A DNA stretch of 64,000 nucleotides from Escherichia coli. GTDB taxonomy: Bacteria; Pseudomonadota; Gammaproteobacteria; Enterobacterales; Enterobacteriaceae. Below, piece by piece: positions 2,481 through 13,219 of the stretch. Numbering within the stretch: the first letter of the stretch is position 1; the number at the start of each line of letters is the position of its first letter. The notes beneath the pieces are model-generated. The model was not told where the DNA came from. It was given only the letters and a program-made list of their open reading frames with translations, and ran no database searches. Location: NCBI RefSeq assembly GCF_003334255.1, contig NZ_QOWU01000015.1; one strand, given 5' to 3'. The translations under genes and the position numbers were made by a program.

Positions 2481-3221
2481 ATGCTGCAAAATATTCGAAT
2501 TGTGCTGGTGGAGACGTCACACACCGGCAATATGGGTTCTGTTGCCCGTGCCATGAAAACAATGGGATTAACCAATCTGTGGCTGGTTAATCCACTGGTG
2601 AAACCCGACTCCCAGGCGATTGCCCTGGCAGCAGGGGCCAGCGATGTGATTGGTAATGCTCACATCGTCGATACGCTCGACGAAGCGTTAGCCGGTTGTA
2701 GCCTGGTGGTGGGCACCAGCGCACGTTCCCGCACGCTGCCATGGCCGATGCTCGACCCGCGCGAATGCGGCCTGAAAAGCGTCGCTGAAGCGGCAAATAC
2801 CCCGGTGGCGCTGGTGTTTGGTCGCGAGCGCGTCGGCTTGACCAATGAAGAGTTGCAGAAATGCCATTATCATGTCGCGATTGCGGCTAACCCGGAATAC
2901 AGCTCGCTGAACCTGGCGATGGCGGTTCAGGTTATTGCCTATGAAGTGCGCATGGCCTGGCTGGCAACTCAGGAAAACGGCGAGCAGGTCGAGCATGAAG
3001 AGACGCCGTATCCGCTGGTCGATGATCTGGAGCGTTTTTATGGTCATCTGGAACAAACGCTGCTGGCAACCGGTTTTATCCGTGAAAACCATCCGGGGCA
3101 GGTGATGAATAAATTGCGCCGTCTGTTTACCCGTGCGCGCCCGGAAAGCCAGGAGTTGAATATCCTGCGCGGGATTCTGGCTTCTATTGAGCAGCAGAAT
3201 AAAGGTAACAAGGCCGAATAA
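2481..3221 (+). CDS. trmJ: TrmJ tRNA (Cm32/Um32) 2'-O-methyltransferase
   Basis: 246-aa SpoU-family ORF immediately upstream of iscR. Confidence 0.95.
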
Positions 3222-3403
<182 letters not shown>

Positions 3404-3471
3404 CAACAGGTACAAACGCCACGATAAAAAAATGGCACTGAAGGTTAAATACCCGACTAAATCAGTCAAGT

Positions 3472-9354: not shown

Positions 9355-10638
9355 ATGACAGAAGCGATGAAGATTACCCTCTCTACCCAACCTGCCGACG
9401 CGCGCTGGGGAGAAAAAGCAACTTACAGCATTAATAATGACGGCATTACCCTGCATTTGAACGGGGCAGACGATCTGGGGCTGATCCAGCGTGCGGCGCG
9501 CAAGATTGACGGTCTGGGCATCAAGCATGTTCAGTTAAGCGGTGAAGGCTGGGATGCGGATCGCTGCTGGGCATTCTGGCAAGGTTACAAAGCCCCGAAA
9601 GGCACGCGTAAAGTGGTGTGGCCGGATCTGGACGATGCCCAGCGCCAGGAACTGGATAACCGCCTGATGATCATCGACTGGGTGCGTGACACCATCAACG
9701 CACCGGCAGAAGAATTGGGACCATCGCAACTGGCACAGCGTGCTGTTGATCTGATCAGCAACGTCGCGGGCGATCGTGTGACTTATCGGATCACCAAAGG
9801 CGAAGATCTGCGTGAGCAAGGTTATATGGGGCTGCACACAGTCGGACGCGGTTCAGAACGTTCTCCGGTATTGCTGGCGCTGGATTACAACCCAACTGGC
9901 GATAAAGAAGCGCCAGTGTACGCGTGCCTGGTAGGTAAAGGTATCACTTTTGACTCCGGCGGCTACAGCATCAAACAGACTGCGTTTATGGACTCGATGA
10001 AGTCGGACATGGGCGGCGCGGCAACGGTTACCGGGGCGCTGGCATTTGCCATTACGCGCGGACTGAACAAGCGCGTGAAGCTGTTCCTCTGCTGTGCGGA
10101 TAACCTGATTAGCGGCAATGCGTTCAAGCTGGGCGATATCATCACCTATCGCAACGGTAAAAAAGTTGAAGTGATGAACACTGATGCCGAAGGGCGTCTG
10201 GTGCTTGCCGATGGTCTGATTGATGCCAGTGCGCAGAAACCGGAAATGATCATTGATGCGGCGACCCTCACCGGGGCGGCGAAAACTGCGCTGGGTAATG
10301 ATTATCACGCGCTGTTCAGTTTTGACGATGCGCTGGCCGGTCGCTTGCTGGCGAGTGCCGCGCAGGAGAACGAACCGTTCTGGCGTCTGCCGCTGGCGGA
10401 GTTCCACCGCAGCCAGCTGCCGTCTAACTTTGCCGAACTGAACAATACCGGAAGCGCGGCGTATCCGGCAGGCGCGAGCACGGCGGCGGGCTTCCTGTCG
10501 CACTTTGTTGAGAACTATCAGCAAGGCTGGCTGCATATCGACTGCTCGGCGACTTACCGTAAAGCGCCGGTTGAACAGTGGTCTGCGGGCGCTACGGGAC
10601 TTGGTGTGCGCACGATAGCTAATCTGTTAACGGCGTAA
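9355..10638 (+). CDS. pepB: PepB aminopeptidase B (M17 family)
   Basis: 427 aa from ATG 9355 ([10 protein letters not shown]); M17 signature NTDAEGRL. Confidence 0.95.
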
Positions 10639-10646
10639 ACTAATAT

Positions 10647-10744
<98 letters not shown>

Positions 10745-10779: not shown

Positions 10780-11556
10780 ATGTCCGAAACAAAAAACGAA
10801 CTTGAAGACCTGCTGGAAAAAGCAGCAACTGAACCGGCGCACCGCCCGGCCTTTTTCCGTACTCTACTGGAATCCACCGTCTGGGTGCCTGGTACGGCGG
10901 CGCAGGGCGAGGCTGTGGTTGAAGATAGCGCGCTTGATTTACAGCACTGGGAAAAAGAAGACGGCACCAGCGTCATTCCTTTTTTCACCTCGTTAGAAGC
11001 ACTTCAACAGGCGGTTGAAGACGAACAGGCATTTGTCGTAATGCCCGTTCGCACGCTGTTTGAGATGACACTTGGCGAAACGCTCTTCCTTAATGCCAAA
11101 CTGCCAACCGGTAAAGAATTTATGTCGCGTGAAATCAGTTTGTTGATTGGTGAAGAGGGAAATCCGCTGAGCAGCCAGGAAATCCTGGAAGGCGGTGAAT
11201 CGCTGATATTATCGGAAGTCGCAGAGCCGCCAGCACAAATGATTGATTCACTCACCACCTTATTTAAAACCATTAAGCCGGTGAAGCGTGCTTTTATTTG
11301 TTCAATTAAAGAGAACGAAGAGGCACAGCCTAATTTACTTATTGGCATTGAAGCCGATGGTGATATCGAAGAAATTATTCAGGCGACGGGAAGTGTAGCG
11401 ACCGATACATTACCTGGCGATGAACCAATCGATATTTGTCAGGTGAAAAAAGGGGAAAAAGGAATTAGCCACTTTATTACCGAACATATTGCGCCATTCT
11501 ATGAACGTCGCTGGGGTGGTTTTTTGCGTGACTTTAAACAGAATCGGATAATCTAA
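10780..11556 (+). CDS. sseB: SseB (enhanced serine sensitivity protein)
   Basis: 258 aa from ATG 10780 (MSETKNELEDLL). Confidence 0.9.
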   Translation: MSETKNELEDLLEKAATEPAHRPAFFRTLLESTVWVPGTAAQGEAVVEDSALDLQHWEKEDGTSVIPFFTSLEALQQAVEDEQAFVVMPVRTLFEMTLGETLFLNAKLPTGKEFMSREISLLIGEEGNPLSSQEILEGGESLILSEVAEPPAQMIDSLTTLFKTIKPVKRAFICSIKENEEAQPNLLIGIEADGDIEEIIQATGSVATDTLPGDEPIDICQVKKGEKGISHFITEHIAPFYERRWGGFLRDFKQNRII

Positions 11557-11559
11557 AAT

Positions 11560-11580
11560 ATGCCGCCCAAAGGGCGGCAT
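11560..11580. terminator. Stem-loop after sseB; also the candidate 3' end of the minus-strand ryfA-like transcript
   Basis: atgccgccc-aaa-gggcggcat is a perfect 9-bp stem. On the minus strand it is followed by atatttta; the U-tract is weak. Confidence 0.5.
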
Positions 11581-11736
11581 TCGGGCTTACTTGCTGCTCT
11601 GAAGGTTGTTAACCACCAGTAAATTGTCGCCGGAGAGACTCCGGTTATTATTTACCTCGGTTAACAGCGCACCAGAAACAATAAGTACGATACAAAAGCA
11701 CCGTATCTTCATTGTGCGGTCCATGCGAAGACCGCA

Positions 11737-11811
11737 TCACGACAGCACCACTGGCGATATTGCCGCGATAGCAAGCGCTGTGAAACACCTGCATTTACGG
11801 CCACGGAACAT
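11737..11811 (-). CDS. Candidate 24-aa small hydrophobic protein (MFRGRKCRCFTALAIAAISPVVLS), TimP/type-I-toxin-like
   Basis: ATG at 11809-11811 with SD aggaaagg 2 nt upstream; basic N-terminus followed by a 14-residue hydrophobic stretch; an upstream anti-SD (ccctttcc) can pair with the SD. Below the 60-aa cutoff of the ORF track. Confidence 0.3.
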   Translation of the reverse strand: MFRGRKCRCFTALAIAAISPVVLS

Positions 11812-11900
11812 CCTTTCCTAAAGCCAGCGCCCGTTTGCGAGACGGCGGAAAGGGCCGCAGTGGATAATACACTAACAGAACAATAATAACTCTCTTTTGC

Positions 11901-11929
11901 TTGACAAAAAGAGAGTTACTGGCGAGTAT
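11901..11929 (+). promoter_or_regulatory. Sigma70-like promoter inside a palindrome (copy 1)
   Basis: Consensus -35 TTGACA at 11901-11906, 17-nt spacer, -10 GAGTAT at 11924-11929. The -35 sits in the loop of the palindrome ctctcttttg/caaaaagagag and overlaps the minus-strand TTGTCA. Confidence 0.45.
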
Positions 11930-11935
11930 TGTCTC

Positions 11936-12032
11936 CGCTGAGACGCGCTTGCATTACTACGGTAATACAACCTGCTGGAAAGGCCGCGAACCGGACCAGC
12001 AACAAAAAACCGCCTGATTTTGGCGGTTTTTT
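11936..12032 (+). ncRNA. Candidate ~100-nt sRNA (TimR-like), copy 1
   Basis: Runs from the predicted TSS to an intrinsic terminator (ccgcc-tgatttt-ggcgg + T6, 12009-12032). Contains ggaaaggccgc, complementary (with one bulge) to the 5' UTR of the minus-strand small-ORF transcript. Confidence 0.4.
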
Positions 12033-12222
12033 GTTTTTTAAAGGAAAGTGAATTTACATGTTTAAGTAATATCTTTTACCGGTTAGAATTTTTAATTTTG
12101 AGCAGGATTTGTTTATATTTGTCTGAATTCAGACTAATAAGCCAGGTTATTTTATTACCGAACACGGCGGAAAGGGCCGGTGTCGATAATACGCTAAATA
12201 AACAATAATTACTCTCTTTTGC

Positions 12223-12251
12223 TTGACAAAAAGAGAGTTACTGGTGAGTAT
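12223..12251 (+). promoter_or_regulatory. Sigma70-like promoter, copy 2
   Basis: Identical TTGACA (12223-12228), 17-nt spacer and GAGTAT (12246-12251), in the same palindrome context as copy 1. Confidence 0.4.
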
Positions 12252-12257
12252 TGTTTT

Positions 12258-12357
12258 GCTGTGAAGCACCTGCGTTGCTCATGTAACACAAGTCAACCTG
12301 CTGGAAAGGCCGCGAACCAGACTAGCAATAAAAAACCGCCAAATTCGGCGGTTTTTT
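12258..12357 (+). ncRNA. Candidate ~100-nt sRNA, copy 2 (sibling of 11936-12032)
   Basis: Same promoter; diverged 5' half; conserved 3' block cctgctggaaaggccgcgaacc; terminator stem ccgcc/ggcgg preserved although the loop differs (aaattc vs tgatttt). Confidence 0.4.
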
Positions 12358-12373
12358 ATTGCCTGTAAAATAC

Positions 12374-13219
12374 TTATTTCACTGGCTCAACCGGTAAATC
12401 TGCCCGCGCGCCCCATTCACTCCATGCGCCGTCGTACAGTTTCACGTTTGGCACATCCAGCGTCGCGAGTGCTAACAAAACCACGGCTGCCGTTACACCA
12501 GAGCCGCAGCTGACGATAATTGGTTTGTCGTAGCTGACGCCGCGACCAAAAAATATCGCATCCAGTTCATCGGTCGTTTTTAGTTCGCCTTCGCGCACCA
12601 GTTCCGTCCACGGAACATTCAGTGCTCCGGGAATATGTCCGCGACGTAAACCTGGGCGAGGTTCATCAACTTCTGCGTTAAAACGTGCAGCCGGGCGGGC
12701 ATCAATAATTTGCGCCGTATTTTCATGGCTTGCCAATAATACATCGGTTACTTTCACCACGGCTTCAGGATTAAACGCGGCGTTAAACTCTCCTTCCGGC
12801 AGCTCTACTGCACCTTCTTCTAACAGCAGATCATCGCGCTGCCAGCCTGCAAGTCCACCCCCCAGAATCGACACTTTCTCTACACCAAAGGTGCGCAGCA
12901 TCCACCATGCTCGTGGGGCTGAGAAAAGATTACCTTCGTCATAGACAATCAGGTGCTTATCCTGGTTAACGCCTAATTCACGCATCGCCACGGCGAACGT
13001 TTCCGGGCGCGGCAGCATGTGCGGAAGCGGGGAAGTGTGATCAGAAAGCGCTTCGATATCAAAAAACACTGCGCCGGGAATATGTCCATTCAGATACTCC
13101 TGAGCAACGTTACGATCCTCCTGTCCAGGCGACGCCATGCGGGCATCGATAATCTGAATTTCCGGGTCATCAATATGTTCGGCGAGCCAGTCGGCTCCTA
13201 CAAACCATGTCGTGGACAT
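12374..13219 (-). CDS. sseA: SseA 3-mercaptopyruvate sulfurtransferase
   Basis: 281 aa from ATG 13217-13219 (MSTTWFVGADW); rhodanese active-site CGSGVTA. The track ORF extends 53 codons upstream of the real start. Confidence 0.93.
   Translation of the reverse strand: MSTTWFVGADWLAEHIDDPEIQIIDARMASPGQEDRNVAQEYLNGHIPGAVFFDIEALSDHTSPLPHMLPRPETFAVAMRELGVNQDKHLIVYDEGNLFSAPRAWWMLRTFGVEKVSILGGGLAGWQRDDLLLEEGAVELPEGEFNAAFNPEAVVKVTDVLLASHENTAQIIDARPAARFNAEVDEPRPGLRRGHIPGALNVPWTELVREGELKTTDELDAIFFGRGVSYDKPIIVSCGSGVTAAVVLLALATLDVPNVKLYDGAWSEWGARADLPVEPVK

Follow-up and report, generated by a model that had tools for sequence, protein, structure and literature searches.

Two TimR-like small RNA genes of different seed class beside a single timP toxin gene between sseB and sseA of Escherichia coli

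Which of two sibling small RNA (sRNA) genes serves as the antitoxin when the toxin gene beside them is present only once? This question is raised by a locus in a stretch of 64,000 nucleotides from Escherichia coli (RefSeq assembly GCF_003334255.1, contig NZ_QOWU01000015.1; referred to as the window), where the gene order is pepB, sseB, ryfA/timP, sseA, yfhM and where an sRNA gene and its promoter occur twice between ryfA and sseA. A first-pass annotation of the window took the sRNA gene adjoining the toxin gene (copy 1) for the working antitoxin and the distal one (copy 2) for a leftover that is antitoxin-only or a decoy. What is present here is the chromosomal type I toxin-antitoxin module ryfA/timP-timR of E. 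coli in the composite arrangement of K-12, and the roles of the two copies are inverted with respect to that annotation: judged by its sequence, copy 2 is TimR, the antisense antitoxin cognate to the resident timP, while copy 1 is a mismatched, non-cognate paralogue, and the AT-rich spacer between them is read as a scar left when a second toxin module was deleted. We regard this explanation, taken as a whole, as likely to be correct. Positions 11550-12380 are 100% identical to E. coli strain G1/2 and 99.8% identical to K-12 MG1655, relative to which the orientation is inverted, and MG1655 has exactly the same layout, which answers the question whether K-12 shares the arrangement. The features of the locus are, by position in the window:

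11555-11858, minus strand: ryfA RNA, that is, the timP mRNA (toxin transcript); full-length match to Rfam RF00126 with 315 bits; corresponds to MG1655 ryfA b4440
11587-11712, minus strand: timP coding stretch, inside a 45-aa open reading frame (ORF) at 11587-11724; corresponds to MG1655 timP b4812 and to 126-nt PGAP timP annotations
11776-11798, minus strand: predicted TimR-binding site in the 5' untranslated region (5'UTR) of timP, ryfA nt 61-83; best RNAduplex site of both TimR copies, at the same relative position as the 18-nt site in Salmonella (PMC7667032)
11880-11929, both strands: divergent promoter block 1, with a palindrome, the sRNA -35 TTGACA at 11901-11906 (plus), the ryfA -35 TTGTCA at 11907-11902 (minus) and the sRNA -10 GAGTAT at 11924-11929
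11935-12032, plus strand: copy 1, TimR paralogue of the CGCGT specificity class, ECS011/IS129; MG1655 2653681-2653778; identical to the ECS011 read sequence CCGCUGAGACGCGCUUGCAUUAC...
11990-12198, minus strand: match to Rfam "IS128 RNA" (RF00125, 260 bits; gathering score 80), spanning stub, spacer and the back of the copy 1 terminator
12033-12150, no strand assigned: AT-rich spacer, always found after a terminator with a UGAUUUU loop
12151-12164, plus strand: remnant of a duplicated sseB 3' end (TTTATTACCGAACA), 14/14 identical to sseB 11473-11486
12164-12179, minus strand: 16-nt 5'-end stub of a deleted second ryfA (reverse complement of ACGGCGGAAAGGGCCG), from alignment to strain CH10508
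12202-12251, both strands: divergent promoter block 2, with the same palindrome, overlapping -35 hexamers at 12223-12229 and the sRNA -10 GAGTAT at 12246-12251
12258-12357, plus strand: copy 2, TimR, with a 5' single-stranded seed, stem-loops SL1 and SL2 and an intrinsic terminator with an AAAUUC loop; MG1655 timR b4811 (2653356-2653455, minus strand) maps onto these coordinates

The repeat lies where the first-pass annotation had placed it, to within 1-2 nt: in a pairwise blastn alignment 12164-12357 repeats 11842-12032 with 82.7% identity over 196 columns (E = 4e-52). The pattern of conservation was also described correctly. The part that holds the ryfA 5' end and the promoters, and that is not transcribed as sRNA, is 86% identical between the copies, with the palindrome, the overlapping -35 hexamers and the -10 element the same letter for letter; identity drops to 58% over the following ~40 nt and rises to 85% in the 3' block and terminator. 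Both terminator stems are identical (AAAAAACCGCC/GGCGGUUUUUU), whereas the loop is UGAUUUU in copy 1 and AAAUUC in copy 2. The compensatory change that had been ascribed to the terminator is thus absent, because no stem base differs, only the loop. Compensatory pairs sit in SL1 instead, the internal hairpin of which reads AUUAC/GUAAU versus GUUGC/GUAAC; over nine TimR variants its first pair is A-U or G-C and its fourth pair A-U, G-U or G-C, and SL2 and the terminator are conserved across all nine. The diverged middle of the repeat consists of the recognition seed and SL1 and does not reflect drift.

Copy 2 is a unit of ~100 nt with its own promoter (TTGACA-17-GAGTAT), an intrinsic terminator of 11 bp followed by U6 and the TimR fold with the SL1 and SL2 common to the nine variants, so that it was rightly proposed to be a sibling sRNA gene. 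Promoters and folds are the same in both copies, and on the minus strand a promoter scan returned TTGTCA-16-TATTGT for the ryfA promoter. Within the palindrome the -35 hexamers of the two directions (TTGACA on the plus strand, TTGTCA on the minus strand) overlap with an offset of 1 nt, at 11901-11907 and at 12223-12229, which suggests that perhaps only one promoter of a divergent block is occupied at a time. The palindrome is absent from O157-type modules and from those of other Escherichia.

The two copies differ in their 5' ends. Fris et al. described four versions of the ryfA variable region, TGTTT, CGCGT, CCCCC and CACCC. The resident ryfA belongs to the TGTTT class, its variable pentamer reading GG-UGUUU-CAC, and the copy 2 seed is the complement of TGTTT; this seed recurs as a direct repeat on the plus strand at 11777-11795. 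With ryfA nt 61-83 the 5' seed of copy 2 is predicted to pair over 19-20 contiguous bp, G-U pairs counted, at -39.4 to -39.5 kcal/mol, and hence is complementary to the timP 5'UTR of its own genome over a long unbroken stretch, as expected of TimR. Copy 1 lacks such complementarity. Its seed GCUGAGACGCGCUUGC is complementary to the CGCGT class, of which the window contains no ryfA, and at the same site of the resident ryfA it reaches at most 11 contiguous bp and -30.9 kcal/mol, as compared with 17 bp and -41.7 kcal/mol on the CGCGT-class ryfA of other strains. Of the combinations of three seed classes with three targets, the matched ones gave -39 to -42 kcal/mol and the others -18 to -31 kcal/mol. 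As a reference, ten adjoining TimR/ryfA pairs from E. coli, another Escherichia species and Kluyvera (eight from loci with a single ryfA, two from CH10508) ranged from -35.8 to -41.7 kcal/mol; copy 1 on the resident ryfA is weaker than all ten, by a margin that is not wide.

These values come from windowed and seed-only calculations. RNAduplex runs on whole RNAs were discarded, as they returned meaningless long-range duplexes dominated by the shared terminator. A duplex between the conserved 3' block of TimR and either ryfA nt 49-60 or the ryfA 5' end (-27 kcal/mol) was also dropped, because the O157 ryfA alters the site without a compensating change in TimR and because the block lies inside SL2. 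Weak Rfam matches to ohsC, OrzO-P, AgrB and RNAI on the terminators stayed below threshold and reflect a generic terminator shape.

The effect of seed differences on regulation is known from two related systems. In Salmonella Typhimurium TimR-timP (formerly STnc2070-ryfA; Andresen et al. 2020; Eleftheraki & Holmqvist 2024) the same ryfA RNA family encodes the TimP ORF opposite a divergent ~100-nt sRNA with an intrinsic terminator, the 5' end of which is likewise complementary to the timP 5'UTR, over about 18-20 nt at an equivalent position. There an 18-nt stretch of the 5'UTR is bound by the 5' end of TimR, this pairing was shown to be what represses TimP by in vitro translation and with compensatory mutants (PMC7667032), mutation of 6 nt of the seed abolished rescue, and binding of TimR breaks up a pseudoknot that is required for timP translation (PMC11228461). 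Shigella dysenteriae RyfA1/RyfB1 and RyfA2/RyfB2 (Fris et al. 2017) represent the same tandem duplication of the module between sseB and sseA, and the link to ryfA-type siblings in Shigella made by the first-pass annotation is correct. The two divergent ~100-nt sRNAs of S. dysenteriae are ~60% identical and owe their specificity to the variable region, the ryfA of the window being of the TGTTT (RyfA2) class. Overproduction of RyfB1 reduces RyfA1 but not RyfA2 (PMC5333039), and therefore seed differences of this kind confer specificity.

Carried over from Salmonella TimR and, at the RNA level, from Shigella RyfB1, repression of TimP by copy 2 would proceed as follows. A sigma-70 promoter of its own would give rise to an sRNA of ~100 nt, the unstructured 5' end of which would bind ~20 nt of the timP 5'UTR, and translation of TimP would be blocked through destabilisation of the active, pseudoknot-containing conformation of the mRNA. 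The 5' ends of copy 2 and ryfA are 400 bp apart, a distance that in principle should be no obstacle since TimR acts in trans. Copy 2 is probably the operative repressor in this strain. The arrangement nevertheless differs from both precedents. Salmonella has one module, whereas the window has two sRNA genes of different seed class and one toxin, with the cognate sRNA gene 400 bp off behind a scar and a mismatched one adjoining the toxin; S. dysenteriae, going by the published description, retains both toxin RNAs, whereas the window has lost one and the adjacency that remains is non-cognate. In zorO-orzO/zorP-orzP and ibs-sib, with which PMC5333039 and PMC7667032 also draw a comparison, tandem duplicated modules likewise obtain copy specificity from seed differences, and zor-orz is also divergent and non-overlapping, but each sRNA stands beside its cognate toxin, while in the window cassettes have been shuffled and one toxin has been lost.

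The alternative that survives best is that both copies repress the resident timP, copy 2 strongly and copy 1 in part, as a redundant or differently regulated supply in the manner of sibling sRNAs. Besides the identical promoters and folds, it is favoured by the helix of 11 bp (GCGCUUGCAUU) with flanking pairs that copy 1 retains at the authentic site; 7-12 bp suffice for many trans-acting sRNAs, and two natural adjoining pairs have just 10-12 contiguous bp. Those natural pairs still reach about -36 kcal/mol, however, RyfB1 has no effect on RyfA2 despite flanking complementarity, and the 6-nt seed mutation of Salmonella TimR also speaks against tolerance of mismatches. We therefore consider shared repression possible, though on balance unlikely.

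The segment in front of copy 2 suggests how it came to stand alone. Positions 12036-12164 have a GC content of 26%, as compared with 52% for the window, and contain only mechanical ORFs of 29 and 62 aa, in keeping with the description as AT-rich and without an ORF. It is not an anonymous or designed spacer, though, but contains an sseB remnant and lies inside the RF00125 match. The comparison with CH10508 and related strains, which carry two complete modules, is informative: their order is sseB, ryfA (TGTTT), TimR, UGAUUUU terminator, AT spacer, an 87-nt sseB 3' fragment (sseB', annotated as a pseudogene in CH10508), ryfA (CGCGT), TimR, AAAUUC terminator, sseA. The window is collinear with CH10508 except for an exchange of the two TimR cassettes and a gap of ~357 bp (3083-3439 of the CH10508 locus, L007), which begins 14 nt into the sseB' fragment and ends within the 5' end of ryfA, at nt ~17. 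The deletion junction, at 12163/12164, has a microhomology of 1 nt. On this alignment the spacer, the sseB' remnant, the ryfA stub and the orphaned ryfA promoter together make up the putative scar of a second toxin module. No homologue of the spacer was found in the loci fetched from Citrobacter, Kluyvera, Salmonella arizonae and Escherichia sp., in phages, on true plasmids or, beyond the 14-nt sseB remnant, in the rest of the window. Around the stub the junction creates an imperfect inverted repeat, TATTACCGAACAC / GTGTCGATAATA (12153-12165 and 12180-12191), which is the first hairpin of the predicted IS128 fold and could be a coincidence or a trace of the deletion mechanism.

The RF00125 match raises the alternative that the AT-rich segment is itself an sRNA gene, IS128, read on the minus strand from the duplicated ryfA promoter to a bidirectional terminator. 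The score of 260 bits is high, the hypothetical transcript would start at the orphaned ryfA promoter, where a promoter-like site (12229-12202, minus strand) is intact and reads TTGTCA-16-TATTGT, a terminator-like site is present, the fold has a z-score of -5.0, and the spacer is conserved at ≥99% identity in over 1,100 of the 5,426 complete E. coli genomes used for comparison. In K-12, however, IS128 obtained 0 deep-sequencing reads and no strand-specific Northern signal, its original detection relied on a double-stranded probe that also sees copy 1, and its overexpression gave no phenotype. Its sequence is pieced together from ryfA stub, sseB remnant and spacer; its fold score derives largely from the shared terminator and from the inverted repeat made by the junction, and high identity is expected among close genomes. 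An IS128 gene is accordingly improbable, and the Rfam entry appears to describe a deletion scar, not an sRNA gene.

Genomes with a single module carry matched sets. A37 has a TGTTT ryfA adjoined by the copy 2 allele as its sole TimR, E2865 and M45 combine a CGCGT ryfA with a copy-1-type TimR, and O157 has a CACCC ryfA with its own TimR; in all of them TimR is followed by an AAAUUC terminator and sseA, with no spacer. The terminator loop thus tracks the position in the locus and not the type of sRNA, UGAUUUU standing before the spacer and AAAUUC before sseA. The cassettes exchanged between the window and CH10508 comprise ~130 bp with promoter, seed and SL1. As they were exchanged while the loops follow position, at least one recombination in GAGACGGCGGAAAGGGCCG, a 19-nt segment common to all modules, is needed in addition to the deletion. 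The order of events may be pictured as follows. Copy 2 would once have faced a ryfA of its own, which was lost in an illegitimate deletion of ~357 bp that left behind the spacer, 14 nt of sseB' and the 16-nt stub behind an apparently intact, orphaned ryfA promoter, and recombination within GAGACGGCGGAAAGGGCCG would have put the non-cognate, CGCGT-class TimR beside the TGTTT-class toxin. If only one promoter of a block can be used at a time, the timP promoter would compete in this arrangement with the promoter of a non-cognate sRNA, and transcription of the cognate antitoxin would be uncoupled from the toxin promoter.

Position and expression are the evidence in favour of the roles first assigned, with copy 1 as working antitoxin and copy 2 as decoy. 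Copy 1 adjoins and diverges from timP and no other toxin, the canonical type I layout, with its 5' end 77 nt from that of ryfA and the promoters back to back, while copy 2 diverges only from the 16-nt stub and is not immediately upstream of timP. Copy 1 is also expressed in K-12: ECS011 (a deep-sequencing candidate re-annotated as IS129) has a mean of 46.5 reads and gave Northern bands of ~95/100 nt with a copy-1-specific probe, and its published sequence CCGCUGAGACGCGCUUGCAUUACUACGG... equals the window from 11935 on, placing its 5' end 6 nt past GAGTAT. Against these roles stand the seed classes and pairing energies given above, the single-module TGTTT genomes, which carry the copy 2 allele, the loss of regulation upon seed mismatch in Salmonella together with the specificity in Shigella, and the curation of MG1655, the RefSeq record of which has no feature over copy 1 and annotates only the distal copy as timR. 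Copy 2 is physically antitoxin-only, as its minus-strand side lacks a toxin ORF, but it is neither a decoy nor an orphan, being annotated as timR b4811, identical to the A37 allele and the sole full-length seed match. We hold the original assignment to be very improbable. RyfB and RyfC of K-12 do not adjoin ryfA, b4607/b4608 being located at ~2.698 Mb. That region is the shoB/ohsC locus.

For copy 2 itself the expression data are indirect. The old, misplaced annotation "C0614" lies on the copy 2 promoter and overlaps just the first 4 nt of copy 2; its published coverage of 4.6% equals 4/87 nt, which by our own reckoning suggests ~17 K-12 reads at the 4 nt where copy 2 starts. The copy 2 sequence is not among the K-12 candidate tables of Shinhara.

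Several points weigh against copy 2 as cognate antitoxin, copy 1 as non-cognate neighbour and the spacer as scar. Copy 1 still pairs with the resident site at -30.9 kcal/mol, in a range of contiguous pairing not far from that of the two natural pairs mentioned, the duplex energies take no account of target accessibility, and partial cross-repression of timP by copy 1 is possible. Transcription of copy 2 in K-12 is argued from the C0614 coverage and the curated b4811 entry, and function in E. coli is, for both copies, transferred from Salmonella and S. dysenteriae. Finally, the proposed path involves at least one recombination and one deletion, and no intermediate was identified with a chimeric query of copy-1-type TimR, spacer, full sseB' and ryfA, for which the search program links the genuine upstream sseB to the spacer.

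The feature as such is already known, because all of its parts have names. IS128, IS129/ECS011, C0614 and timR b4811 of K-12 are the same DNA, named independently, and correspond to the scar (minus strand), copy 1, the copy 2 promoter with the first 4 nt, and copy 2; RyfB1/RyfB2 provide the precedent. In the searchable literature we found nothing that links ECS011 to TimR, calls the sRNA adjoining ryfA in K-12 non-cognate or takes IS128 for the remnant of a ryfA deletion, and the allele mismatch itself appears to be undescribed. The significance is chiefly one of annotation and interpretation, the supposed orphan being K-12 timR and the spacer being Rfam IS128. K-12-type strains have two TimR-like sRNAs with different seeds, so that a "timR" deletion or probe designed by adjacency would target the wrong gene, and ryfA or timR phenotypes reported across E. 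coli pathotypes concern different allele classes and architectures. More generally, the locus is a compact natural case of type I toxin-antitoxin specificity cassettes that diversify and are shuffled through recombination.

The arrangement is widespread. The K-12-type junction occurs in about 1,774 of the 5,426 genomes, and 2,244 carry the AT spacer, once each. The copy-1-type cassette is present in 4,569 and the CGCGT-class ryfA target, the majority class, in about 2,992 (both at ≥95% identity), which leaves at least about 1,577 genomes with a copy-1-type TimR but without its cognate toxin. One may speculate that in about one third of the complete E. coli genomes, among them K-12, a copy 1 TimR is stably maintained and expressed in the absence of its cognate toxin, the commonest timP class, not as a relic but because it is functional, either by pre-neutralising incoming majority-class timP (anti-addiction or compatibility) or by acting on other targets in trans; we consider this doubtful. 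The CGCGT class, described in 2017 as "ryfA1-like" and associated with enteropathogens, also occurs in bovine, urinary and river-estuary isolates, and the proposed link to pathogenicity may need a second look.

The first-pass annotation had named a generic repeat family as a condition to be checked, and a dispersed REP-, ERIC- or MITE-like element deserves practically no credence, for in spite of the palindrome and hairpins and a REP-like element nearby, every match to the repeat unit in the 5,426 genomes is chromosomal and at the single sseB-sseA locus, with at most three places per genome, not the many copies at unrelated loci of such families, and none was found in phages, elsewhere in the window or on true plasmids beyond one short terminator-region match (other "plasmid" matches are mislabelled chromosomes). 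The REP-like element lies between pepB and sseB (10633-10677) and has a partial Rfam naRNA4 match of 40 bits, below the gathering score of 59.5.

Outside E. coli, a scan of the genome collection yielded seven loci, none of them from Shigella. Each of Citrobacter, Kluyvera, Salmonella arizonae and another Escherichia species has a single module in which the conserved TimR 3' block stands beside ryfA. An exact 21-nt match to the block in a GC-rich contig of a Phycisphaerae metagenome-assembled genome (L013, 1593-1613) has no ryfA or TimR context and looks like chance, about 0.1 such matches being expected in the collection.

Two strains, EECO1006 (L003, 1240-1380) and B20105 (L020, 1030-1125), have a third TimR-like gene after the AT spacer, with the seed GAGUAGACGAGAUACACUUGCA and a different promoter. 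It has no cognate ryfA in its locus (5 contiguous bp, about -17 kcal/mol) and is decaying, the 5' half of SL1 being missing and, in B20105, the terminator being deleted.

On one DNA strand the TimR seed is a direct repeat, ~16 nt long, of the target site in ryfA. In strain 06-00048 (L006, 2720-2745) and in Salmonella enterica subsp. arizonae CCUG 6322T (L015) the stretch between the direct repeats is gone, and with it both promoters and the 5' end of ryfA, and ryfA is fused straight to TimR; the Rfam ryfA match in L015 is just 272 nt long. Deletion between the direct repeats looks like a recurrent route to inactivation of the module. The loop of the distal TimR terminator is broken at the same position (CCGCCAAATT|TGAACTG...) in 06-00048 (L006, 2810-2830) and in Rosetta2-DE3, a BL21 derivative (L004, 3290-3300), and because the loop is interrupted TimR would be without a terminator in both. 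The broken loop is followed by ISEcB1 (IS3 family) in 06-00048, and in Rosetta2-DE3 by a similar end and then by tRNA-like sequence and gltX in place of sseA, implying a rearrangement.

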